Part shown: piece by piece, positions 545 through 15,748 of the stretch
Layout of the letters: every line of letters begins with the position of its first letter
How positions within the stretch are numbered: the stretch's first letter is position 1
Origin: a virus
Lineage: Duplodnaviria > Heunggongvirae > Uroviricota > Caudoviricetes
Strand: one strand, 5' to 3'
IMG/VR virus record: IMGVR_UViG_2651869694_000011
Length of the DNA: 17,082 bases
The notes under the pieces: generated by a model
Seen by the model: only the letters and a program-made list of their open reading frames with translations
What the model was told of the DNA's origin: nothing
Databases searched by the model: none
Translations under genes and position numbers: made by a program

Positions 545-1663
545 TCAAACAACCAATTTAACCCATTCCTGACCACGAGTATCGTTATAACGATCGGTGG
601 TTGCCTGGACTTTATGTCCCAGTAATGTTTTTGTATCAATACCCTGCGCGCGGTACAGTCGTTCTGACAGGGAGCGTTGTTCATGAAATGTTGGCGGAGT
701 TTTTCCTGCTGGTGGAGTTATCCCAGCCAGATCCCGTGCTTTGGCAAAGTAGTCGCTCAGGTTGTCTTTACTCATCGGCTTTGGTTGTTTCTGGTGCCGA
801 CTATGGATTAGATATGGACTTAATATTCTGTCTCGGCACCCATCAATAACTTCTTTTAACGTTATCCCAATGGCATCACAGCGTAGTGTAAGCGGTAACG
901 CCAGACGCATTCCGGTTTTTCCCTGGGTGATATGCAAGTGTTCGTTCCACACATCTGAAAAACGCATGTGGCAAATGTCATCACGGCGCTGACCAGTAAC
1001 AATCGCAAGAAGCATTGCGTTACGGATAAAGTGTTTTTCAGGCGTTGCGTTGTAAATTTTTTGCCAGTCTTCCAGGGTGAGCCTGGCTCTAGTTACTTTA
1101 GGGATCGGTTTACGGGTAGCCTCCGGAGGATTCCATCCAGGAGGAACTTCCCCTGCATGCTGTGCTTCTTTATAAATATCAACCCATAATCCACGATTTA
1201 CTCTCGCTGTGCTGACCATGTCTTTATCCAGCCACTCATCCAGTATTAATGCAAAGTCTCTTACTTCCAGTTCTTTCAATGGGTGGTTTCCCAGACGGGA
1301 AACCAGGTATGCAGCCATTCGGGCTTTTTCTTTGTGAGTTGTAGCTGCAATATCTCCATTTTTCAGTCGCGTGTCCTGTATTTTCAGATATCGATCAACC
1401 CATGCCTTTAATCTGATACCCCGACGTTTTGTTGCTGACGGACTTTCATCAATTTTGCGCATGAAATATTCAGCTTCTGCTGCAGCTATCCGCTGATTGG
1501 CTGTGGAAGCGATTTTTTCTGCCTTACCTTTGTCTGTTCCGAGTCCGTGAAATTTTCCAGTCACAGGATTTTTATACTGGTAGTAAACTCTGCCAGTTCT
1601 GCGATCAAACTTTTCGTAAAGACCGGCTACGTCAGTGCTGTTTTTTCGTGGCCTCGGTGACAT
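545..1663 (-). CDS. int: Phage tyrosine integrase, lambda Int family (closest in my memory to e14/phage 21 integrases)
   Basis: 372-aa ORF. N-terminus MSPRPRKN...GLYEKFDRRTGRVYYQYKNPVTGKFHGLGTD and C-terminal catalytic region HEQRSLSERLY...LLGHK...TDRYNDTRGQEW match the lambda-type Int architecture (R..HxxR..Y). AAGGAG lies 10 nt upstream of the ATG. Overlaps the xis 3' end as in lambda. Confidence 0.95.
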   Translation of the reverse strand: MSPRPRKNSTDVAGLYEKFDRRTGRVYYQYKNPVTGKFHGLGTDKGKAEKIASTANQRIAAAEAEYFMRKIDESPSATKRRGIRLKAWVDRYLKIQDTRLKNGDIAATTHKEKARMAAYLVSRLGNHPLKELEVRDFALILDEWLDKDMVSTARVNRGLWVDIYKEAQHAGEVPPGWNPPEATRKPIPKVTRARLTLEDWQKIYNATPEKHFIRNAMLLAIVTGQRRDDICHMRFSDVWNEHLHITQGKTGMRLALPLTLRCDAIGITLKEVIDGCRDRILSPYLIHSRHQKQPKPMSKDNLSDYFAKARDLAGITPPAGKTPPTFHEQRSLSERLYRAQGIDTKTLLGHKVQATTDRYNDTRGQEWVKLVV

Positions 1664-1901
1664 GAGTTAAAATCTCCTTCAGTGCATCATCATCGCCAGT
1701 ATGAATTTCCGGCGCAATTCCCGTTTCACCAGGCCCAACAAATACTGCTCGGCGATCTATCAGCCAACGCCCACGAATTTTTTGTGGTCTTGGAACGATG
1801 TATCCTAGTTTTCCGTATTTCACCAGGGTAGTGTTTGTTATTGGGAGACTGAACCGTTTTGGTTTCCACTCGTCGAGCGTTATCAGGTACTGTTCGCTCA
1901 T
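1632..1901 (-). CDS. xis: Excisionase (Xis)
   Basis: Small ORF directly upstream of int and overlapping it. YLTLDEWKPKRFSLPITNTTLVKYGKLGYIVPRPQKIRGRWLIDRRAV resembles lambda Xis. I place the start at the ATG at 1901 (GGAG 8 nt upstream) rather than the in-frame GTG at 1910 used by the ORF track. Confidence 0.85.
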   Translation of the reverse strand: MSEQYLITLDEWKPKRFSLPITNTTLVKYGKLGYIVPRPQKIRGRWLIDRRAVFVGPGETGIAPEIHTGDDDALKEILTHVTEATKKQH

Positions 1902-1962
1902 GGCTATCACTCCGGAACGCGCCAGTTGCAGAATATCAACGACAACTGGCGACGGTTGAACA

Positions 1963-4434
1963 TTAAAAATCAGCCTGACTCGGGATCAGTTTTTGCCAGA
2001 TAACTGAAACGTATTTTGCCTGGTAACGGGCGTCATCAAGTGCATTATGGCGCTCACCTTCGAATGGAATAGCCGTTCTGGCATCGAAGTCTATGGCTTT
2101 CCCCAGCTCAACGATTGTGCGTACATCGCGATCGTTGTAGTAACGCCACGGGCAGGGGATCCCCTGCCGTTCGTATGAACGGCGCAAAATCGTGTTGTCG
2201 AAGTTGGCTCCATTTCCCCAGACCTGAACAAAAAATTCACCGGAGTTTTCGTCGATAAATTCCCGCAATTGTAACAGTGCATCATCTAACGGGATTTCAT
2301 CGGTCATAATGGCAGATTGCGCTTCGCGTGATTGCTTAAGCCACCATTTAATGGTGTCCCGATCAATGACTCCGCCAGCAGTTTCCAGATCGATAGTCTT
2401 ACTAAATTCCGGTCCCATATCTCCGGTTTGCGGATCGAAAAATATTGCACCTATTGAGATGATCGGGGCATCAGGATTTTTTCCCATGGTTTCAAGGTCG
2501 ATCATTAGATGGTCACACGTCCTGCTGGTGGATGTGATTTCTTGATGACCGTTCACCTTAATTGAGTGATCTGCCGTCTCGCCAGTTTCATTATCGCTAT
2601 CGTGATGCTGATTGCCGCCAGTGTTCTCCTTGTGTGGATGTTCAGCGCCTTCCATTTTCTCCGGATCATCTTCCTGAACTTCAACCTGATACTCTTCATC
2701 GAATGTTTCCTGGTATGTTGCGTCGCCCATCACTGCGCCACAATCAGGGCAGTTGCCGCCGCCGGTCTGACCGCAGGCGGTGCAGACCTTTTCCACTTCC
2801 TGTTGCACCACTGGTTCAGGCTGTTTCGTTTCTGGCTCGTTTTGTAACGCATTTGGGCTGTTTTGTTCCGCTTTCTGGTAGTTCCGTTCCGATTCATGCT
2901 GGTTCTGGTTCACAGAATCGCGGGTCTGGATCCCCTTAACCCATTTCGGATCATTCGGGTCGCTAATCCCTGCAACAAATTCACCACGAGAGACAGCAAG
3001 CAACTCATCGGCGTCAGGCTGGCTGATATTGGCTGCCTGCATAATTTTGTTTACTTCGTCAGCGGTAACTTTTACCGACCCTGGTTGTGCGGTCGTGTCA
3101 GATGCACCAGTATTTTGTTGTGAACCTGAGTATGTACCGTTTTTGCGGGCGAAATATTCTTCTTTCGTGATTTCAGTAGCCCCAGCAGACAGCGCCTTAT
3201 CCAGACCAGAAAGTTTGTTTGCGCGACCGTATTTTTCGCCATCCTTGTCGGTGAAGAGGAAGTAGAACGGCCCCTCACGCTCTACAGATGGTTCGACTTC
3301 CACTTTGCATTCGGTTTTTTCGTTGTCCGGAATTGCCGTTTCCACTGCATCAGTTTCTGGTACTGGCGACGAGAGAGTATCAGTTGCGCTCTGATTTGTT
3401 CCTTCATCTTCAAACACGCCCTTTGTAGTCAGGTATTCAGTAATGTATTTGTTCAGTGCCACAGGGTCTTTGTGAATGTCGATCGGACGTTCACGGACAA
3501 GGCCAAAAATAGTCTGGCGGTCGTAGCGAAGGGCATCAGGCTGTTTGCGCATTGATGCCGAGATACGCTTCCAGTCTTCGCGGTCGTTGTCGATAACTTC
3601 ATTTTTTGCCCAGCGATGGATGCTGCCGTCAATGTTTCCGGCATCCACATCACCAGGCCAGAGAGCGTAGGCCAGTTCGTCATCCAGTGTTTTCCATGTC
3701 TGCTTGTATTCGCGATGAATGGCAGCAATGACCGGGTTGATTTTTCCTGTTGAATTTTCAGTGTGCTGTTGATTGGCTCTGGCGCGGGCGAGATCAACAA
3801 CAGACGTGTATTTTCCGGCTTCCTTGCGTTCACCTTCGCGACGTTTTTTCCAGATGCGCATCTCTGCCTGAATTTCGGGCCATTTGGCACCAGGCTTACA
3901 TTTATGCTTAACCCACCCGATGGCATGCAGCTTAAGCTCCGGATACATAGCGTTAACTTCTGGCATTTTCATCAACGCTTCAACGATATGGCCGTCGAAT
4001 GTTGCCATGTCTTCCTGCAACAATTCCTGTGCGCTAATCACCATATCAACAGTGATGTTTTCACATGTGTCGAACTTAACCATGACAGCGTTCTGTACTT
4101 CAGGGGCTAGGTTGTCAAAAGTGACGTTCATCGGATCGGATTCAGTCTCAACCGGGACAAAAGAAGCAGACTCCTCATCCCAGCGGTTTTCCTGCATATA
4201 TTCAGCATCCCATGAATCGAGGGCAGGGCGGGGTATGCCAGGTTTATCCTCGCAGACAATAAATTTATAAGCGCAGTCCTGAGCAGCCGGATAATGTTCC
4301 AGGAATTGCCAGTGAAATTTTGCGCGGGCGCGACATTCATCACCGGCTTCAATGGCAGTGGCTACAGCGACTGCACCTTCTTCCTTTATTGCCTGTTCGT
4401 CCGGAATGGCGGCGCAAATAAAGACTTTACTCAT
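1963..4434 (-). CDS. Large prophage exonuclease: RecE-like N-terminal/central region fused to a C-terminal DnaQ-like (DEDDh) 3'-5' exonuclease domain
   Basis: 823-aa ORF. The C-terminal ~200 aa carry the three DEDDh motifs (IDLETMG; WGNGANFDNTIL; HNALDDARYQAKY). The central segment LLAVSRGEFVAGISDPNDPKWVKGIQTRD matches a conserved stretch of E. coli RecE as I recall it. CTACGQTGGGNCPDCG is a CxxC...CxxC zinc-ribbon-like motif. GAGGT lies 4 nt upstream of the ATG. Confidence 0.85.
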   Translation of the reverse strand: MSKVFICAAIPDEQAIKEEGAVAVATAIEAGDECRARAKFHWQFLEHYPAAQDCAYKFIVCEDKPGIPRPALDSWDAEYMQENRWDEESASFVPVETESDPMNVTFDNLAPEVQNAVMVKFDTCENITVDMVISAQELLQEDMATFDGHIVEALMKMPEVNAMYPELKLHAIGWVKHKCKPGAKWPEIQAEMRIWKKRREGERKEAGKYTSVVDLARARANQQHTENSTGKINPVIAAIHREYKQTWKTLDDELAYALWPGDVDAGNIDGSIHRWAKNEVIDNDREDWKRISASMRKQPDALRYDRQTIFGLVRERPIDIHKDPVALNKYITEYLTTKGVFEDEGTNQSATDTLSSPVPETDAVETAIPDNEKTECKVEVEPSVEREGPFYFLFTDKDGEKYGRANKLSGLDKALSAGATEITKEEYFARKNGTYSGSQQNTGASDTTAQPGSVKVTADEVNKIMQAANISQPDADELLAVSRGEFVAGISDPNDPKWVKGIQTRDSVNQNQHESERNYQKAEQNSPNALQNEPETKQPEPVVQQEVEKVCTACGQTGGGNCPDCGAVMGDATYQETFDEEYQVEVQEDDPEKMEGAEHPHKENTGGNQHHDSDNETGETADHSIKVNGHQEITSTSRTCDHLMIDLETMGKNPDAPIISIGAIFFDPQTGDMGPEFSKTIDLETAGGVIDRDTIKWWLKQSREAQSAIMTDEIPLDDALLQLREFIDENSGEFFVQVWGNGANFDNTILRRSYERQGIPCPWRYYNDRDVRTIVELGKAIDFDARTAIPFEGERHNALDDARYQAKYVSVIWQKLIPSQADF

Positions 4435-4526
4435 TTTGTTTTACCTCATTACAGATTTAAGGGTGAACAAATCCCTGCCATTGCTGGCATATAAGAATGA
4501 AACCGGATATTTATTACGGAACTGTT

Positions 4527-4718
4527 TTAAAGACCTGCCGGGATTTCGTTATTATCCTGGTGAATAACTTTATCGACCGGGTAACAGTTACCGGGAATTT
4601 TCTGTTCGGTTGCTGCAGTCACACACTCCTGCATTGTCCTGTGAACACTGACTGCAATATCAACTGGCTCTCCGGAAACAAGAAAAACTGTCAGAACAAG
4701 TGCAAATGCTGTATTCAT
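4527..4718 (-). CDS. ydfD: YdfD-like small membrane protein (63 aa)
   Basis: Start ATG overlaps the dicB stop in an ATGA arrangement (plus-strand tcat at 4715-4718). N-terminal hydrophobic segment MNTAFALVLTVFLVSGEP. Sequence and length match my recollection of Qin prophage YdfD. The track ORF 4527..4772 is a longer in-frame extension. Confidence 0.7.
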   Translation of the reverse strand: MNTAFALVLTVFLVSGEPVDIAVSVHRTMQECVTAATEQKIPGNCYPVDKVIHQDNNEIPAGL

Positions 4719-4903
4719 TGCCAGCATCCTTTTTGTATCGGACGTAAACGGGCCAGCATTGAAAGAATGCATATTTTATTTAATAACTCCCGTTCGTGTT
4801 TTCTCTTGTTAATGGCATCTTCAGTAAATACAGGGTTACTGATAGTGACACCAATTTCAAAACAACCTTCAGACGTATTAACGTTTGGTAATAACGTTTC
4901 CAT
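4715..4903 (-). CDS. dicB: DicB-like cell division inhibitor (62 aa)
   Basis: Internal ATG of track ORF 4715..5008 gives METLLPNVNTSEGCFEIGVTISNPVFTEDAINKRKHERELLNKICILSMLARLRPIQKGCWQ, near-identical to E. coli Qin DicB as I recall it. dicF lies immediately upstream, as in Qin. Confidence 0.85.
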   Translation of the reverse strand: METLLPNVNTSEGCFEIGVTISNPVFTEDAINKRKHERELLNKICILSMLARLRPIQKGCWQ

Positions 4904-5072
4904 TATCGCGTCCTCAACAATGAATTTTGTGATGCGGTGCCTGGTGCCTCCAGGTGACGTTAACCAGTTAACAATTAACGCCGGATACAGAGAATCCCCC
5001 CATAACACTGTTTTTGGTTTTAACTGTTCCGCGTGCGCTCAGCCGCATTCACCGCATCACAAAATTCACTTT

Positions 5073-5130
5073 AAAAAGGGCGGCAGAGCAGTCACGGAGT
5101 AAAACTGATACCGCCAAACGTCACCAGAAA
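5073..5130 (-). ncRNA. dicF: DicF small regulatory RNA
   Basis: The reverse complement of 5073-5130 reads tttctggtgacgtttggcggtatcagttttactccgtgactgctctgccgccctttttaa, which matches the E. coli DicF sRNA sequence from memory, including the terminal hairpin and U-run. Position directly upstream of dicB is as in the Qin dicB operon. Confidence 0.8.
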
Positions 5131-5393
5131 ATTGATAACAGAGGGCGTTGCAGCGGGGTTGTCACTTAAGCGTATGGTCAACCTGACAACCCGGTGTCCT
5201 CAACGGGGGAAGGAATAACCCCGCCATACTTACCGCCGCGCCATTTCGCGGATTGCCACAACCAGAAGCGCACGGTCGAATTAAATTTAACGACGACCTA
5301 TACAGAGAGACTAACTTCGCCGTGCGCTTTCGTGTTATGCCCTGACTTTTCAGGGTAAATTAACCTGTGGAAACCTGTTTTTACTGGCGCTAA

Positions 5394-5546
5394 TCAGTTA
5401 GCGTTTCTTGCTAACCAGCGATGCGCGCCAGCTTCGGTTTTAAACGTTTTACTTCTGGTATACGTCATCGCGGTAAACGTGCCGTCGTGGTTGGGGAATA
5501 CTCCGCACACCAGAGATTCATTGTTGCCAAGATTGAGCATATCCAT
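5394..5546 (-). CDS. Candidate small ORF (50 aa) in the early leftward operon, possibly YdfA-like
   Basis: Minus-strand ATG at 5546 with GAGGT 4 nt upstream. Translation MDMLNLGNNESLVCGVFPNHDGTFTAMTYTRSKTFKTEAGAHRWLARNAN. Below the ORF-track size cut-off. Identity to YdfA is unverified. Confidence 0.35.
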   Translation of the reverse strand: MDMLNLGNNESLVCGVFPNHDGTFTAMTYTRSKTFKTEAGAHRWLARNAN

Positions 5547-5726
5547 GTTGACCTCATTTACCCTTAACGCCGGGTCGCGGAACTAAAAACCTGCTGCGCT
5601 GTTATACAAAGTGTTCCCGCCGTCATGTTCATACGCCTCGGGCTGGCTACTTAACCCCTGACCACTGCCGGGTAACTCGAGGTATTGCCCGACGTTCTGT
5701 GGGGCGAGGTAGGGTGGTATGTAATA

Positions 5727-5770
5727 AATCTAAAAGTATTTAGTTTTTCAGTCAAGATAAATCTAGATTA
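5727..5770 (-). promoter_or_regulatory. Candidate leftward early promoter (pL-like) with OL-like operator palindromes
   Basis: Minus-strand -35 TTGACT (plus coords 5750-5755) and -10 TAGATT (5727-5732) with 17-bp spacing. ATCTAAAAGTATTTAG (5728-5743) is near-identical to the OR palindrome at 6534-6551. A second palindrome AATCTAGATT sits at 5760-5769. Confidence 0.45.
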
Positions 5771-5774
5771 ATTT

Positions 5775-5800
5775 AAAAAAAAAGGTCGGCATTGCCGACC
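5775..5800 (-). terminator. Rho-independent terminator downstream of the repressor gene
   Basis: Hairpin ggtcggc-att-gccgacc (5784-5800) preceded on the plus strand by an A9 run (U-run on the minus strand), 22 nt past the cI stop. Confidence 0.65.
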
Positions 5801-5821
5801 TCAAGTAAAGGACGTGGCGGG

Positions 5822-6469
5822 TTATAAGTTGAACTGTACACCTTTTGCTACGGCAACAATTTTACACTCTGGTGTAAGTAAGGATGACTGATAGCGTGGA
5901 TTGAGAGGGCTTAAATACACAAGCTTCCCATCAATAACTAATTTCTTTATAGTCATAGATGGTTCATTTTTAAGCGGATCCGGAACTATTACAGCGACGA
6001 TGCTGCCATTTTTATAACTTTCTCCTGGCCTTAGGATCACAGTAGCACCAACTGGGATACTCGGTGATCCTGATGGGTTATGCATTGTGTCATCAGGCAT
6101 TGAAACGGCAAAATCACCTTCCTCGACATCAAAGAATGTGGTGATCCTATCGACATTTCCCATTGTTTTCTCTCCTTTTAAGATTAGGAAAGAAATCGCC
6201 TCACCCCACGAAAGGTAGGGGATCTTGGTGCCTGAGGTACTTTGTACAAAAGATAATTCAGGAGACGATACTCCATATAGGAGATAGGACTCAGTAGTTC
6301 CTAATGCCTGGGCTAACTTACTTAGAGCTTTGCTACCTGGTTCGTTTAGATCTTTCTCCCAGTACCCTATAGTAACCCCAGTCACGCCTGAAAGCTTACC
6401 CAGTTCTACTTGGGTCAGCCCCTTATCTTTTCTAAGTCTCTTAAGCCTGATGCCAAGGCTTTCCATCAT
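5822..6469 (-). CDS. CI-like phage repressor: N-terminal XRE-type HTH plus C-terminal S24 (LexA-like) peptidase domain
   Basis: HTH region GLTQVELGKLSGVTGVTIGYWE. C-terminal domain aligns with lambda cI (AVSM vs GNSM catalytic Ser; IKKLVIDGKLVYLSPLNPRYQ vs [21 protein letters not shown] with catalytic Lys). AGGAG precedes ATG ATG at 6469/6466; the track start at 6481 is a TTG. Confidence 0.9.
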   Translation of the reverse strand: MMESLGIRLKRLRKDKGLTQVELGKLSGVTGVTIGYWEKDLNEPGSKALSKLAQALGTTESYLLYGVSSPELSFVQSTSGTKIPYLSWGEAISFLILKGEKTMGNVDRITTFFDVEEGDFAVSMPDDTMHNPSGSPSIPVGATVILRPGESYKNGSIVAVIVPDPLKNEPSMTIKKLVIDGKLVYLSPLNPRYQSSLLTPECKIVAVAKGVQFNL

Positions 6470-6481
6470 TTTCTCCTGCAA

Positions 6482-6563
6482 ATTGAATATAAATTATTTT
6501 AGATTGCATTGACCTAAAAAAAATTATCTTGTAATCTAAAAATACTTAGATTTAGGAGGTAAA
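6482..6563. promoter_or_regulatory. Divergent immunity promoter/operator region (pRM/pR/OR equivalent)
   Basis: AT-rich 82-bp interval between divergent repressor and cro-like genes. Perfect inverted repeat ATCTAA-N6-TTAGAT at 6534-6551. Candidate pR -35 TTGACC (6509-6514) and -10 TAATCT (6532-6537). GGAGG precedes the cro-like ATG. Confidence 0.5.
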
Positions 6564-6791
6564 ATGCGAGTTGATGAACTTGTCCAGTTTTTTGGTTCTG
6601 TTCAGAGGGTTGCCGATTTTTATGGGATAACCCGCGAAGCTATTTACATGTGGCGTAAGCGTCCTGGTGAAACAGTTCCGAAGGGGAGGGCTGCGGAAGC
6701 TGCTGCATACTCCAAGGGGAAATTATCTTTGAACCCAGAACTTTACAAAAAGAAGGATACCACTCAGGGCGAAGGAAAGGGGGATTCATGA
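6564..6791 (+). CDS. Cro/DicC/YdaS-like small HTH regulator
   Basis: 75-aa ORF divergent from the repressor, with a strong RBS (aggaggtaaaATG). Motif FGSVQRVADFYGITREAIYMWRK parallels DicC (FGSKTKLAQAAGIRLASLYSWK) as recalled. Confidence 0.8.
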   Translation: MRVDELVQFFGSVQRVADFYGITREAIYMWRKRPGETVPKGRAAEAAAYSKGKLSLNPELYKKKDTTQGEGKGDS

Positions 6792-7213
6792 AAATCAAAC
6801 ATGAGCACATCCGCATGGCGATCAATGCCTGGGCCTATCCGGACGGTGAGAAAGTTCCTGCAGCTGAAATAGCCCGGACTTATTTCGAGCTGGGGATGAC
6901 GTTCCCGGAACTGTACGACGACAGCCATCCGGAAGCCCTGGCTCGTAATACCCAGAAAATTTTCCGTTGGCTGGATAAAGACACCCCTGATGCTGTTGAA
7001 AAAATTCAGGCTCTGTTACCGGCGATCGAAAAGGCAATGCCGCCTCTGCTGGTGGCCCGTATGCGCAGTCACAGCTCTGAATATTACCGTGAGATCGTCG
7101 AACGGAGGGATCGGCTGGTGAAAGATGTGGATGATTTTGTCGCAGCGGCGATCGCCTGGGGCACCCTGACTAACAGTGGTGGTCAGCCAGGTAATGCTGT
7201 TGTCGTGCATTGA
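6788..7213 (+). CDS. ydaT: YdaT-like protein (CII-analogue regulator of Rac-type immunity regions)
   Basis: 141-aa ORF whose ATG overlaps the cro-like stop (ATGA). The sequence MKIKHEHIRMAINAWAYPDGEKVPAAEIARTYFELGMTFPELYDDSHPEALARNTQKIFRW matches my recollection of Rac YdaT. SD aaggggga upstream. Confidence 0.8.
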   Translation: MKIKHEHIRMAINAWAYPDGEKVPAAEIARTYFELGMTFPELYDDSHPEALARNTQKIFRWLDKDTPDAVEKIQALLPAIEKAMPPLLVARMRSHSSEYYREIVERRDRLVKDVDDFVAAAIAWGTLTNSGGQPGNAVVVH

Positions 7214-11559: not shown

Positions 11560-11734
11560 TGCTGCGGGTGCTTGAGGCTGTCTGCCTCGGGCATGCCACC
11601 GTAAGGCAGACAGAGAAAAGCCCCAGTTAACATTACGCGTCCTGCAAGACGCTTAACATTAATCTGAGGCCCAATCTATGCTTCACAAACGTAGGTTAGC
11701 CTCTTACGCGCCGAAAGGCAAGGAGAAGCAGGTT

Positions 11735-11890
11735 ATGAAGCAGCAAAAGGCGATGTTAATCGCCCTGATCGTCATCTGTTTAACCGTCATAGTGACGGCA
11801 CTGGTAACGAGGAAAGACCTCTGCGAGGTACGAATCCGAACCGGCCAGACGGAGGTCGCTGTCTTCACAGCTTACGAACCTGAGGAGTAA
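11735..11890 (+). CDS. hokD: Hok/Gef family type I toxin (HokD/RelF-like, 51 aa)
   Basis: MKQQKAMLIALIVICLTVIVTALVTRKDLCEVRIRTGQTEVAVFTAYEPEE matches the Hok family and E. coli HokD as recalled. SD AAGGAGAAG 9 nt upstream. Track ORF 11678..11890 is an in-frame upstream extension. Confidence 0.9.
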   Translation: MKQQKAMLIALIVICLTVIVTALVTRKDLCEVRIRTGQTEVAVFTAYEPEE

Positions 11891-11958
11891 GAGACCAGGC
11901 GGGGGAGAAATCCCTCGCCACCGCTGATGTGTCAGGCATCCTCAACGCACCCGCACTT

Positions 11959-11985
11959 AACCCGCTTCGGCGGGTTTTGTTTTTT
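11959..11985 (+). terminator. Rho-independent terminator of the hok transcript
   Basis: Hairpin cccgc-ttcg-gcggg (11961-11974) followed by ttttgtttttt. Confidence 0.75.
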
Positions 11986-12057
11986 CTGGTCGTTCTGGTT
12001 TACAATCCATCCGTCAGCCTGAACAACTGGCACCTGCTGCGCCAGCAGAGAAAACAG

Positions 12058-12336
12058 ATGGCGCACGATACCAAATTTTACAATTCGGATAACTCTGCCG
12101 CCCCTGCCAGCAGGCACGGGCGGCGTTCTCATGCATTCAAATCTGACTGGTATCAGCACGACCCCTGCACCGAAGAACAGGCTGAATGGCTGATTCAGTA
12201 TTACCGCAGGCGCGGATACGAGGTTAAGAAAGCCCTCAGTCTCGATTATCGTCACTGGATAATCTCCGTCAGGCTTCCTTACTCCGAACGCCCACCGCGT
12301 CCGTCCCGCACATTCCAGCAACGCATCTGGAGGTAA
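12058..12336 (+). CDS. Hypothetical basic protein (92 aa)
   Basis: ATG at 12058 is the first start downstream of the hok terminator within track ORF 11929..12336. Weak RBS. The stop lies 2 nt before the DUF968 start. In Qin the gene between hokD and ydfU is rem, but identity is unverified. Confidence 0.45.
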   Translation: MAHDTKFYNSDNSAAPASRHGRRSHAFKSDWYQHDPCTEEQAEWLIQYYRRRGYEVKKALSLDYRHWIISVRLPYSERPPRPSRTFQQRIWR

Positions 12337-15111: not shown

Positions 15112-15187
15112 GGCCCTTTAGCTCAGTGGTGAGAGCGAGCGACTCATAATCGCCAGGTCGCTGGTTCAAATCCAGCAAGGGCCACCA
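15112..15187 (+). tRNA. tRNA with CAU anticodon, most similar to E. coli tRNA-Ile2 (ileX/ileZ type); could alternatively be annotated tRNA-Met
   Basis: Manual cloverleaf: acceptor GGCCCTT/AAGGGCC, D-arm GCTC/GAGC, anticodon loop CTCATAA, T-loop GGTTCAAATCC, 3' CCA encoded. One A-C mismatch at the base of the anticodon stem. Confidence 0.9.
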
Positions 15188-15267: not shown

Positions 15268-15344
15268 GCGTTGTTAGCTCAGCCGGACAGAGCAATTGCC
15301 TTCTAAGCAATCGGTCACTGGTTCGAATCCAGTACAACGCACCA
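15268..15344 (+). tRNA. tRNA-Arg (anticodon UCU, reads AGA/AGG)
   Basis: Manual cloverleaf: acceptor GCGTTGT/ACAACGC, D-arm GCTC/GAGC, anticodon stem ATTGC/GCAAT with loop CTTCTAA, T-arm ACTGG-TTCGAAT-CCAGT, discriminator A plus CCA. Confidence 0.9.
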
Positions 15345-15662
15345 CACCACACTTATCTGCCCTGACTCTCTTTTGCGGGCTTTTTATTACAGGAAAGACA
15401 CCGGACAGTGAAATGTTAAATGCCTCACAATTCAGGCAGTTGACTGTTGCCTGACATGCTGAGCGTTTGTTAAAAAAATCCTGCATGATGAATCCCCCTG
15501 AGCGGCGGGGCATAATGACAGATGTTTGGTTGCGTATTGTATAGGCAAGTTGCGGATTCTGTCTGGTCATTGCAGAATTCACCGGGAGGCACCCGGCATC
15601 ATGCTGTATACAGAGATTAGGCATATATCCAGGCTTCTCATCGCAGGAGCCTTTTTACATGC

Positions 15663-15688
15663 AAAAAAAAGCCCGAGTGGGTTCGGGC
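15663..15688 (-). terminator. Rho-independent terminator oriented on the minus strand, with no annotated upstream minus-strand gene
   Basis: Plus strand shows an A8 run (15663-15670) then hairpin gcccga-gtgggt-tcgggc (15671-15688), which reads as hairpin plus U8 on the minus strand. Confidence 0.55.
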
Positions 15689-15748
15689 AACAGCATGAGA
15701 TACTTGCATTGTCATTTTTATCGTGTGGATTTTAACCAGGGTTTATAA

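Follow-up and report, generated by a model that had tools for sequence, protein, structure and literature searches.

The window analysed here, a 17,082-nt stretch of the Caudoviricetes record IMGVR_UViG_2651869694_000011, very probably carries an intact and ordinary copy of the dicBF cassette of Qin-type lambdoid prophages within a leftward early (pL-type) operon, and the left arm of the prophage, from the repressor to the integrase, looks complete. The Qin-type dicF-dicB-ydfD module proposed by the first-pass annotation was confirmed with a covariance model and HMMs and by a nearly identical K-12 sequence; in the alignment with the K-12 dicF/dicB locus, DicF was identical at 53 of 53 positions, and DicB and YdfD showed 89% and 94% identity, respectively. 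Chance matches are ruled out as the source of this identification. The limits of the module, 4527-5130, coincide exactly with the stop codon of ydfD and the 5′ end of DicF. Likeness to the Qin dicBF region of K-12 extends from ~5350 to ~4415 (~950 nt, roughly at least 97% identity as judged by eye, with scattered mismatches) and ends just within the exonuclease gene, the start codon of which is at 4434.

The cassette is abundant. Of 5426 complete E. coli genomes, 4758 matched part of the 4400-5850 region, at a median of 2 and at most 10 places per genome, and over its entire length the window shares 96–99% identity with prophages from O55:H7, O26 and strains related to them. The module had already been placed ahead of xis and int, and the gene order dicF-dicB-ydfD-exonuclease-xis-int, all on one strand, agrees with the ORF map and with the annotation. 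The biology of the dicBF cassette is already published for K-12 Qin, EHEC prophages and phages mEp460 and Tritos, and the functions of DicF, DicB and YdfD have been described (PMC5069750, PMC10448788, PMC9438474, PMC6832061, PMC8835842).

DicF and its leader

DicF is among the earliest bacterial regulatory RNAs described. The reverse complement of 5073-5130 had been taken for DicF essentially base for base; of this segment, 5130..5078 (minus strand) equals dicF of K-12 MG1655 at all 53 nt. Since the annotated 53-nt dicF corresponds to 5130..5078 and the TTTTT directly 3′ of it, at 5077..5073 on the same strand, is the U5 tract of the DicF intrinsic terminator, the segment represents DicF plus its U-tract. 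Using cmscan, Rfam RF00039 was placed at 5129..5078 (minus strand) with 76.7 bits against a gathering score of 48 (E 9.7e-16), and the model was complete from 1 to 52. The 5′ single-stranded region and the 3′ pairing regions are identical to those of the characterised K-12 RNA (b1574), and the 3′ end forms a terminator hairpin of -15.9 kcal/mol followed by UUUUU, as in a Rho-independent terminator that serves as an Hfq-binding module.

Upstream of DicF, we identified a leader hairpin at 5257..5334 (minus strand; -25.1 kcal/mol, z -2.1), which is near the K-12 sequence except in its variable loop and is the expected RNase III site that gives the 190-nt precursor. Going by the position reported in PMC10448788, a 190-nt precursor ending at 5078 would begin near 5267, in the 3′ strand of this hairpin. 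The 3′ end of the 72-nt DicF reported for K-12 maps to 5059, within the closing helix of the spacer that follows. The leader hairpin, terminator and closing helix that direct processing in K-12 are all kept here, and the positions expected for the published 190-, 53- and 72-nt species coincide with kept helices.

Two ORFs in this region were treated as spurious: a 31-aa ORF in the non-coding leader, and a plus-strand ORF at 4497-5102 (201 aa) that lies opposite known genes and RNA elements. Other weak Rfam matches in 4400-5900 (STnc50, STnc430, sroD, tsr32 and snoRNAs) were regarded as chance, being far under their gathering scores with E above 0.1.

dicB and ydfD

The dicB gene (4903..4715, minus strand) encodes 62 aa that match Pfam DicB (PF05358) over residues 1-62 of both protein and profile (E 1.7e-37; 127.4 bits against a cut-off of 27). 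Of its 62 residues 7 differ from K-12 DicB, and 5 of these 7 are clustered in the last eight residues, at which K-12 RLRLMPKGCAQ reads RLRPIQKGCWQ here. DicB of K-12 is a MinC-dependent division inhibitor and a ManYZ blocker (PMC6832061); by analogy, dicB of the window would be a gene of the same function.

The ydfD gene (4718..4527, minus strand) encodes 63 aa matching Pfam DUF1482 (PF07358; E 3.7e-25, 88 bits against a cut-off of 25), with both C32 and C45 of K-12 YdfD kept. At 4718..4715 the stop codon of dicB overlaps the start codon of ydfD (ATGA), which is the overlap noticed earlier. On the other hand, the description of the two products as division inhibitors stands for DicB only, as YdfD is a lysis protein that binds and inhibits IspG (PMC8835842). 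Identical proteins, DicB WP_000449192.1 and YdfD WP_001090200.1, are annotated at the same locus in the two closest genomes (H1 and an O55:H7 strain).

Promoter, operators and the leftward operon

A pL-type promoter, TTGACT-17-TAGATT, was predicted by a consensus scan at 5755..5727 (minus strand) with a start near 5720; it was the sole minus-strand sigma-70-like site that the scan gave in 4300-6700, and it is analogous by position to K-12 dicBp (TTGACC-17-TAATCT, read from the alignment). Its -10 hexamer is overlapped by a predicted operator OL, AATCTAAAAGTATTTAGTTT (5727..5746; repeat families D1, I2 and I3). Two predicted rightward operators, at 6486-6505 and 6533-6552, are found in the repressor-cro intergenic region and flank the predicted cro promoter (TTGACC-17-TAATCT, within 6486..6552), which was read by eye and was absent from the list of the consensus scan. 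The 20-bp palindrome AATCTAA-N6-TTAGATT occurs at 3 sites in the window, against 0.06 expected. The early leftward control claimed for the module is thus supported by the sequence, with a predicted promoter after the repressor gene and an operator that is also present in the repressor-cro gap.

The first ORF of the operon is a ydfA-like DUF1391 gene (5394..5546, minus strand; Pfam DUF1391 1.3e-28), and ydfB and ydfC of K-12 are missing in the K-12 alignment. No N-type antiterminator gene was found, the DUF1391 gene being the first ORF; by eye, no nut-like site was detected between the promoter and dicF, nor a boxA-like sequence in 5720-5546. The operon is pL-like in position and control, but not lambda-like in antitermination. 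HK022-type put antiterminator RNA was rejected as the identity of the spacer or the leader, as putL and putR are without the spacer motif and the covariance model R1 (see below) misses HK022.

Between ydfD and the exonuclease gene, a pattern scan detected a weak terminator-like hairpin with a U-rich tail (4476..4489, minus strand), which folds no better than shuffled sequences (z -0.33) and is near-identical in K-12. Data from K-12 suggest an end just after ydfD, the longest transcript seen there being ydfABC-dicFB-ydfD (PMC10448788); by arithmetic, the K-12 transcript of 1,608 nt (PMC10448788) would end near this hairpin.

The exonuclease gene that follows (1963..4434, minus strand; 823 aa) is the intact form of the K-12 pseudogene ydfE. 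Over the first 255 aa, as far as the IS2 insertion in K-12, its product shares 96% identity with K-12 YdfE, and the C-terminus carries a Pfam Rv2179c-like 3′-5′ exonuclease domain (2.3e-67). The excisionase gene (1632..1910, minus strand) has an uncertain start codon, with PGAP calling 270 nt in a relative; its product matches Pfam Exc at the curated cut-off (7.8e-05), and an excisionase is annotated in the related loci L003 and L001. The last gene of the leftward arm (545..1663, minus strand) encodes an integrase of 372 aa (Pfam Arm-DNA-bind_1 3.7e-21, Phage_integrase 4.1e-19), annotated as such in a 98.8%-identical O55:H7 prophage.

The repressor and alternative explanations

The cI-type repressor gene (5822..6466, minus strand; 214 aa) encodes an HTH domain (Pfam HTH_3 2e-12), with an N-terminus that resembles P22 C2, and an S24-like C-terminal domain (Peptidase_S24 5.5e-11) that resembles lambda cI. 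It is followed by an intrinsic terminator (5782..5802, minus strand; a 9-bp stem with 6 GC pairs, then T9), and a cro-like gene is divergent from it (6564..6791, plus strand; Pfam P22_Cro 2.7e-10). At the nucleophile position, in place of the G-x-S-M motif, Thr is aligned to lambda cI Ser149 (DDTM vs GNSM), whereas the general-base Lys is kept (Lys192, in a KKL that is invariant in the alignment). At the position of Ala111-Gly112, where, in the linker, the alignment is not as secure as at the catalytic motifs, E-A-I is found here, A-[I/M/K/T] in the clade and Q-A-G in distant homologues and lambda cI. The Thr and the loss of Ala-Gly are common to the whole clade, to ~50% identity, in E. coli, Salmonella, Yersinia, Sodalis and Arsenophonus, while more distant relatives keep GDSM and VQAG. 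This pattern fits a repressor lineage that gave up self-cleavage, and the repressor here is probably unable to self-cleave.

These features bear on how the operon is switched on. The classic SOS route, with RecA-stimulated self-cleavage of the repressor, was assumed by the first-pass annotation in the SOS-induction experiment that it proposed, and the S24 peptidase-like domain with its kept Lys speaks for it; however, direct cleavage is doubtful because of the Thr at the nucleophile position and the lost Ala-Gly, both of which are clade-wide, and Qin DicA and the Gifsy repressors are under antirepressor control. We thus consider this route unlikely. The LexA box pattern (CTGT-N8-ACAG) was found neither in the window nor across 22.5 kb of the O55:H7 relative. 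A Rem-like antirepressor between hokD and the DUF968 gene, its position in K-12, was provisionally rejected, as the ORF within 11929-12336 has no evident likeness to K-12 Rem by eye. That DicF is made from a promoter of its own, independent of the leftward early promoter, seems very improbable. An earlier claim, cited in PMC10448788, that a promoter lies upstream of dicB and the close similarity to K-12 of the 220-nt non-coding leader upstream of dicF would favour it, but the processing hairpin explains the conservation of the leader without such a promoter. Furthermore, experiments in K-12 (primer extension and northern blotting) detected no internal promoter; RNase III cleavage makes the 5′ end of the 190-nt species, and DicF comes solely from dicBp, the promoter equivalent to the one here (PMC10448788). 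In the window, the consensus scan gave no minus-strand promoter-like site between 5727 and 5130, nor down to 4903, and an internal promoter for dicF or dicB was rejected. It is hardly credible that this copy is a decaying, inactive remnant. Many dicBF copies do lie in defective prophages, such as K-12 Qin with its IS2 in ydfE and its pseudogene integrase, and ydfB and ydfC are missing here; yet the three genes are full length, DicF matches the active RNA of K-12 at every position, no interruption is seen in the promoter, operators, repressor, cro, exonuclease, xis or int, and the same DicB and YdfD proteins are annotated in H1 and the O55:H7 strain.

The remaining alternative is a question of purpose and is compatible with the same anatomy: the cassette may mainly serve the lysogen rather than the lytic programme, through leaky or stochastic expression that would give DicB exclusion of ManYZ-dependent phages and let DicF regulate metabolism and, in EHEC, also virulence (pchA, LEE). 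We regard this possibility as evenly balanced. DicB gives ~100-fold lambda resistance via ManYZ (PMC6832061), DicF builds up in stationary phase and ~1% of cells spontaneously switch dicBp on (PMC10448788), and pchA is activated by DicF in EHEC (PMC9438474). That 4758 of 5426 genomes retain the cassette, frequently with more than one copy, and that it is also kept in defective prophages such as Qin, points the same way. On the other hand, the same cassette is found at the same operon position in the phage records Tritos and mEp460_ev081, and since this is the position of lambda kil and Rac kilR, a role in lytic growth can be argued as well; the sequence alone does not tell the two apart.

The dicF-dicB spacer and the STnc100/PasD family

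The 174-nt spacer between dicF and dicB, a known RNase III target, contains a structured multibranch RNA at 4915..5072 (minus strand), the RNase III substrate, closed by a 21-bp helix in which 5070-5050 pairs with 4939-4919. Its minimum free energy is -91 kcal/mol (z -4.87). Among the spacer homologues, the collection of which was seeded with a 19-nt motif and is hence biased, the consensus drawn from 12 diverse copies contains 44 pairs, with compensatory changes in 5. Against Rfam STnc100 (RF02076) the spacer scored 39.7 bits (E 1.8e-07 in a 291-nt search), and as this is under the gathering score of 47 it should not be filed as STnc100. The reciprocal covariance model R1 gave 174.9 bits for the spacer, 167 bits for the Rac spacer and 48.5 bits for the STnc100 of the window; this supports structural homology between the spacer and the STnc100/PasD family of phage sRNAs.

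The spacer resembles STnc100 (RF02076), EcOnc27 and PasD in its multibranch fold with a GGUGAAU...CACC closing helix, in the reciprocal covariance-model matches and in an invariant CACCNGGAGGCACCNGGCA hairpin, with an N-N pair that shows compensatory changes. Unlike them, it is without its own promoter or terminator, it lies in the early left operon and not downstream of the tRNA and stx position, and it is closed by a longer helix (16-21 bp) than the free-standing sRNAs of the family (6-9 bp). Nor does it look like a free-standing sRNA: the part that corresponds to the STnc100 3′ terminator falls, unsupported, on the dicB ribosome-binding site and start, and the element is inside the operon. 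In leftward early operons, it invariably follows the terminator of an sRNA, DicF or KilS, and precedes the next gene, which in most copies is a small division inhibitor gene (dicB or kilR), while L018-type loci have an IsrK-C4-Rha insert first. The KilR-like ORF of locus L013 had no Pfam match, and its identity comes instead from the annotated K-12 Rac locus.

Tentatively, the dicF-dicB spacer could be an embedded, RNase III-excised member of the structured-RNA superfamily to which STnc100, EcOnc27 and PasD, Hfq-binding prophage sRNAs of the late region, belong, but we give this reading less than even weight. If true, the family would amount to a mobile RNA module that comes in three formats: an sRNA standing on its own, ~253-nt tandem arrays and an intercistronic element with a 16-21-bp closing helix; RNase III cuts on both strands would free a ~125-nt multi-hairpin RNA, which could have a trans-acting role of its own. 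An incomplete literature search returned no paper linking the DicF or KilS spacers to STnc100 or PasD, and the STnc100/PasD-like spacer, recurring between KilS and kilR in Rac, may be a new result.

Proposed course of expression

Judging from the sequence, the cI-type repressor (6466..5822) would bind the 20-bp operator over the -10 of the 5755..5727 promoter and keep the operon near silent, and once repression is lifted transcription would run from ~5720 through the ydfA-like ORF and a 265-nt leader. As demonstrated experimentally in K-12, RNase III would then cut the leader hairpin to give the 190-nt precursor, RNase E would make the 5′ end at 5130, and termination at the DicF hairpin and U5 tract would yield 53-nt DicF. 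In read-through RNA with the 174-nt spacer, RNase III would be expected to cut the 21-bp closing helix, giving 72-nt DicF, the end of which is that known from K-12, and presumably a free dicB-ydfD mRNA, at which the ATGA overlap may couple the translation of the two genes.

If the products act as in experiments with K-12 and EHEC, DicF with Hfq would block ftsZ translation, with manX, xylR and pykA as further targets and pchA activated in EHEC. DicB, as established in K-12, would bind MinC and bring it to ZipA at midcell, so that Z rings are dissolved, and its block of ManYZ would exclude lambda-like phages. YdfD would bind IspG and lyse dividing cells, an effect that is masked by DicB in K-12.

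Significance and comparison with known systems

The cassette itself is nothing new, since the DicB and YdfD targets are defined and multiple dicBF copies in EHEC and other E. coli prophages are published. In the window the operon, which is disrupted in K-12 Qin, is seen in its undamaged state: the ydfE exonuclease gene, xis and int are all intact. As the cassette is coupled to a repressor clade that is probably without self-cleavage, SOS-induction experiments may fail or work only via an antirepressor. The dicF-dicB and KilS-kilR spacers tie two well-known early-operon cassettes to STnc100/PasD, which bears on the origin and movement of prophage sRNAs. The practical value of these three points, i.e. 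the undamaged operon, the repressor clade and the spacer link, is modest.

The dicBF operon of K-12 Qin (ydfABC-dicF-dicB-ydfDE) shares with the window the ATGA overlap, the leader hairpin, the terminator, the spacer with its RNase III helix and the post-ydfD hairpin, as well as the placement of the module downstream of a cI-like repressor that is divergent from a cro-like gene. The immunity regions, on the other hand, are unrelated: here a 214-aa repressor with HTH and S24-like domains and other operators is found, while Qin has the 135-aa DicA. The window also differs from Qin in its intact 823-aa YdfE exonuclease, xis and int, in being without ydfB and ydfC, in having no Rem-like antirepressor at the hokD position as seen by eye, and in its integrase and insertion site.

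EHEC prophages (CP-933M, O and P; Sakai Sp) and phages mEp460_ev081 and Tritos have the same cassette at the same operon position, with exonuclease, xis and int after it. The Tritos genome record contains cI, ydfABC, DicF, dicB, ydfD, exonuclease, xis and int, and that of mEp460_ev081 the dicB-to-exonuclease part. Essentially nothing sets the window apart from these, as it is another mosaic of immunity region, dicBF cassette and integrase.

In K-12 Rac, the cassette (ydaG-ydaF, KilS, a homologous spacer and kilR) follows the same order of repressor, DUF1391 gene, sRNA, ~175-nt spacer, small FtsZ-directed inhibitor gene, exonuclease, xis and int; its sRNA ends ...CCGCCCTTTTT, as DicF does, and its spacer has the same closing helix and the CACCUGGAGGCACCAG motif. 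However, the 98-nt KilS body differs, with no DicF match at gathering score in Rac-like loci, and KilR is unrelated to DicB. The lambda kil gene lies between the recombination genes and the immunity region in the pL operon. It is likewise a small host division inhibitor gene in a leftward early operon, but it has neither a sequence relationship to the cassette nor an sRNA partner, and the lambda pL operon has N and nut antitermination, neither of which was found here. In function, the dicBF cassette corresponds to lambda pL kil and to KilS-kilR of Rac.

Identity of the cassette and functions of its products

The minus strand of 4527-5130 was confirmed to carry dicF, dicB and ydfD. The Rfam DicF model (RF00039, gathering score 48) matched 5129..5078 over its full length (76.7 bits, E 9.7e-16), and in the alignment to the Qin prophage of K-12 MG1655 the annotated 53-nt dicF corresponded to 5130..5078 with no base differing, in line with the base-for-base match proposed in the first-pass annotation. 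As TTTTT directly follows at 5077..5073, the interval named there, 5073-5130, is DicF plus the terminator U-tract. We identified dicB (4903..4715, 62 aa), which matched Pfam DicB over its whole length (E 1.7e-37) with 89% identity to K-12 DicB, and ydfD (4718..4527, 63 aa), which matched Pfam DUF1482/YdfD (E 3.7e-25) with 94% identity to K-12 YdfD; the predicted ATGA overlap of the dicB stop and the ydfD start is found at 4718..4715. Between about 5350 and a point just beyond the next gene's start codon (4434), the alignment to Qin showed only scattered mismatches. The dicBF cassette is already known and is textbook material.

DicF, with Hfq, blocks ftsZ translation and also acts on manX, xylR and pykA, while it activates pchA in EHEC (PMC9438474). 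DicB brings MinC to ZipA at the septum and, by blocking ManYZ, excludes lambda-like phages (PMC6832061). YdfD binds to IspG and causes lysis of dividing cells, an effect that is masked by DicB (PMC8835842). Thus, the proposal of two division inhibitors ahead of xis and int holds for the gene order and for DicF and DicB, which are the two inhibitors, and not for YdfD, which is a lysis factor.

Prophage context and probable early leftward control

The window covers the left and central parts of a lambdoid prophage. In leftward order, the minus strand carries a cI-type repressor gene with HTH and S24-like domains (6466..5822; Pfam), its intrinsic terminator (5802..5782; pattern scan) and a predicted promoter, TTGACT-17-TAGATT (5755..5727), which was the sole minus-strand consensus site detected within 4300-6700. 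Next come a ydfA-like DUF1391 gene (5546..5394; Pfam), a non-coding leader of 265 nt, DicF, a spacer of 174 nt, dicB, ydfD and the genes for the 823-aa exonuclease (4434..1963), the excisionase and the integrase (all three by Pfam). A matching gene order is annotated in an O55:H7 prophage (98.8% identity) and in a relative with a 99.9%-identical dicBF region. Cro-like and YdaT-like genes (Pfam) diverge rightward.

A 20-bp palindrome, AATCTAA-N6-TTAGATT, occurred 3 times in the window (0.06 expected): one copy, at 5727-5746, overlaps the leftward promoter at its -10 hexamer, and two, at 6486-6505 and 6533-6552, lie between the repressor and cro genes. These three predicted operators form the classic OL/OR arrangement, and because of these shared operators the early leftward control suggested in the first-pass annotation, from a pL-type promoter, is accepted as the probable reading. 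K-12 lends support, as DicA there represses dicBp, which is the equivalent promoter and the sole source of DicF (PMC10448788).

As to the neighbouring genes, the one in the cII position (6788-7213, plus strand) is, like its counterpart in Rac, a YdaT-family gene (Pfam YdaT_toxin, 7.4e-11) rather than a homologue of lambda cII. The C-terminal domain of the 823-aa protein is a Rv2179c-like DEDD 3'-5' exonuclease; several records label the protein exonuclease VIII, and the Pfam scan gave no match to a RecE-type family. A hok/sok type I toxin-antitoxin locus (11566-11890, plus strand; sok 114.9 bits, hokD-like ORF annotated in relatives) lies at the relative position of hokD in Qin.

Repressor and inducing signal

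When the C-terminal domain of the repressor was aligned to lambda cI, Thr was found at the Ser149 position (DDTM vs GNSM), with Lys192 retained. Two changes are common to the clade down to about 50% identity, namely the Thr and Ala-[Ile/Met/Lys/Thr] vs the lambda Ala-Gly. Among the members of the clade are proteins from E. coli, Salmonella, Yersinia, Sodalis and Arsenophonus, and GDSM and VQAG were retained in homologues further removed. From these alignments, it looks as if the lineage has given up RecA-stimulated self-cleavage, and RecA-mediated cleavage is improbable for the clade. Neither the window nor 22.5 kb of its closest relative contained a LexA box, and no Rem-like antirepressor was evident in the window at the K-12 position. 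SOS induction, named in the first-pass annotation, is thus only a possible trigger.

Processing of DicF and read-through

Since the relevant K-12 sequence is near-identical, the mechanism published for it can be applied to the window. In K-12, an RNase III cut gives a 190-nt precursor and RNase E the mature 5' end, while the 53-nt DicF arises by intrinsic termination and a 72-nt form by RNase III from read-through transcripts (PMC9438474, PMC5069750, PMC10448788). By arithmetic from the published lengths, set against predicted helices, the 5' end of a 190-nt species whose 3' end is at 5078 would fall near 5267, within the 3' arm of the long hairpin at 5334..5257, and the 72-nt species would end at 5059, mid-way in a 21-bp helix predicted to close the whole spacer (5070-5050 paired with 4939-4919; fold z = -4.87; consensus fold of 12 diverse copies).

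Further downstream, dicB may be co-transcribed with xis and int. The transcripts detected in K-12 reached no further than ydfABC-dicFB-ydfD (PMC10448788); by arithmetic, the 3' end of the 1,608-nt species would lie at a hairpin followed by a U-rich tail. This hairpin, kept here at 4489..4476, is weak and folds no better than shuffles. Neither an N-like gene nor a nut-like site was evident by eye between the leftward promoter and dicF. The put RNAs of HK022 were considered as relatives of the RNA elements of the window and proved unrelated.

The dicF-dicB spacer and STnc100

At a relaxed threshold, the spacer (4915-5072, minus strand) matched Rfam STnc100 with 39.7 bits (E 1.8e-07 in a 291-nt search), below the gathering score of 47, and a full STnc100 is present in the late region (15454-15662, plus strand; 175 bits), the two having the motif CACCNGGAGGCACCNGGCA in common. 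At least 141 copies of this motif were found in viral contigs. Among the matches listed, there are two variants, G..C (104) and U..A (37), which amount to a compensatory change at one pair of a 5-bp hairpin; the U..A copies lie mostly 5' of dicB, and in other loci 5' of other small genes or RNAs, and the sRNA terminator preceding them ends in ...CCGCCCTTTTT, with one copy (L086) as the sole exception.

With a pairing-blind anchor, the closing helix averaged 7.6 contiguous bp over 63 distinct sequences among the matches listed, vs 5.8 for permuted partners (maximum 6.4 over 200 permutations). It spans 16-21 bp in intercistronic copies vs 6-9 bp in free-standing sRNAs, and the longer helices fit intercistronic copies being RNase III substrates. 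A covariance model made from twelve intercistronic spacers alone (R1) scored 48.5 bits on the STnc100 of the window (roughly calibrated E of about 2e-11) and also matched the tested free-standing copies; HK022 gave no match to it. The seeding of the copy collection with the common 19-nt motif inflates the similarity among copies.

Judging from sequence, the spacer is probably homologous to STnc100/PasD. A recent preprint relates STnc100 to PasD; DicF is named neither there nor in the other STnc100 literature examined, and the homology is possibly unreported so far; its interest is modest. That these RNAs make up a superfamily, with a possible excised RNA product, is a tentative and rather doubtful proposal.

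STnc100-like head-to-tail arrays, with a period of ~253 nt and a terminator per unit, were observed in contigs L031 (375-987), L051 (1811-2335) and L015 (2332-3272). In contig L018 (4294-6230), the order is a ydfA-like gene, DicF, the spacer, IsrK, the C4 antisense RNA, a Rha-domain regulatory-protein gene, dicB-like and ydfD-like genes, which indicates that an IsrK-C4-Rha gene block, presumably resembling the immI region of phage P1, was inserted between the spacer and dicB. In the window, an AgvB (anti-GcvB sRNA) match (15664-15723, minus strand; 56.6, gathering score 56) lies on the opposite strand immediately past the STnc100 terminator. The site is downstream of two phage tRNA genes (15112-15187 and 15268-15344, plus strand; anticodons CAT and TCT), where Stx phages carry stx. 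ARAGORN called the first tRNA Met, and PGAP called its homologue in relatives tRNA-Ile; we interpret it as the lysidine-modified type.

Distribution and comparison with known cassettes

Part of 4400-5850 was matched in 4758 of 5426 complete E. coli genomes, at a median of two and a maximum of ten places, and multiple dicBF copies have been published for EHEC prophages (PMC5069750). The same dicBF block occurs with varied integrases and sites, by rspB (as Qin), by potC and by a DUF2335 gene. In the window, the left flank (1-540) carries the gene for the DUF2335 membrane protein, an arrangement shared with O103:H2 strain 12009 and ~200 other genomes. The 98.8%-identical O55:H7 prophage instead adjoins potC; the prophage with the 99.9%-identical dicBF region has another integrase and lies by rspB, the Qin site. 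The varied flanks are mosaic exchange of integration modules, that is, ordinary lambdoid mosaicism.

Phage Tritos is annotated with the architecture of the window, cI-ydfABC-DicF-dicB-ydfD-exonuclease-xis-int, and mEp460_ev081 has its dicB-to-exonuclease part. Rac of K-12 (L126 5246-5503, minus strand) has a parallel cassette, in which the sRNA annotated as KilS is followed by a homologous spacer of ~175 nt (R1 score 167 bits) and by kilR, the FtsZ inhibitor gene; as in the window, a DUF1391 gene lies upstream. Of the known systems, the dicBF operon of K-12 Qin is the closest, and the window differs from it in that ydfB and ydfC are absent, the immunity region is unrelated and the downstream arm is undamaged. 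K-12 YdfE (255 aa to the IS2 insertion) showed 96% identity to the N-terminus of the 823-aa exonuclease, and ydfE, a pseudogene in K-12, is intact in the window (1963-4434, minus strand).
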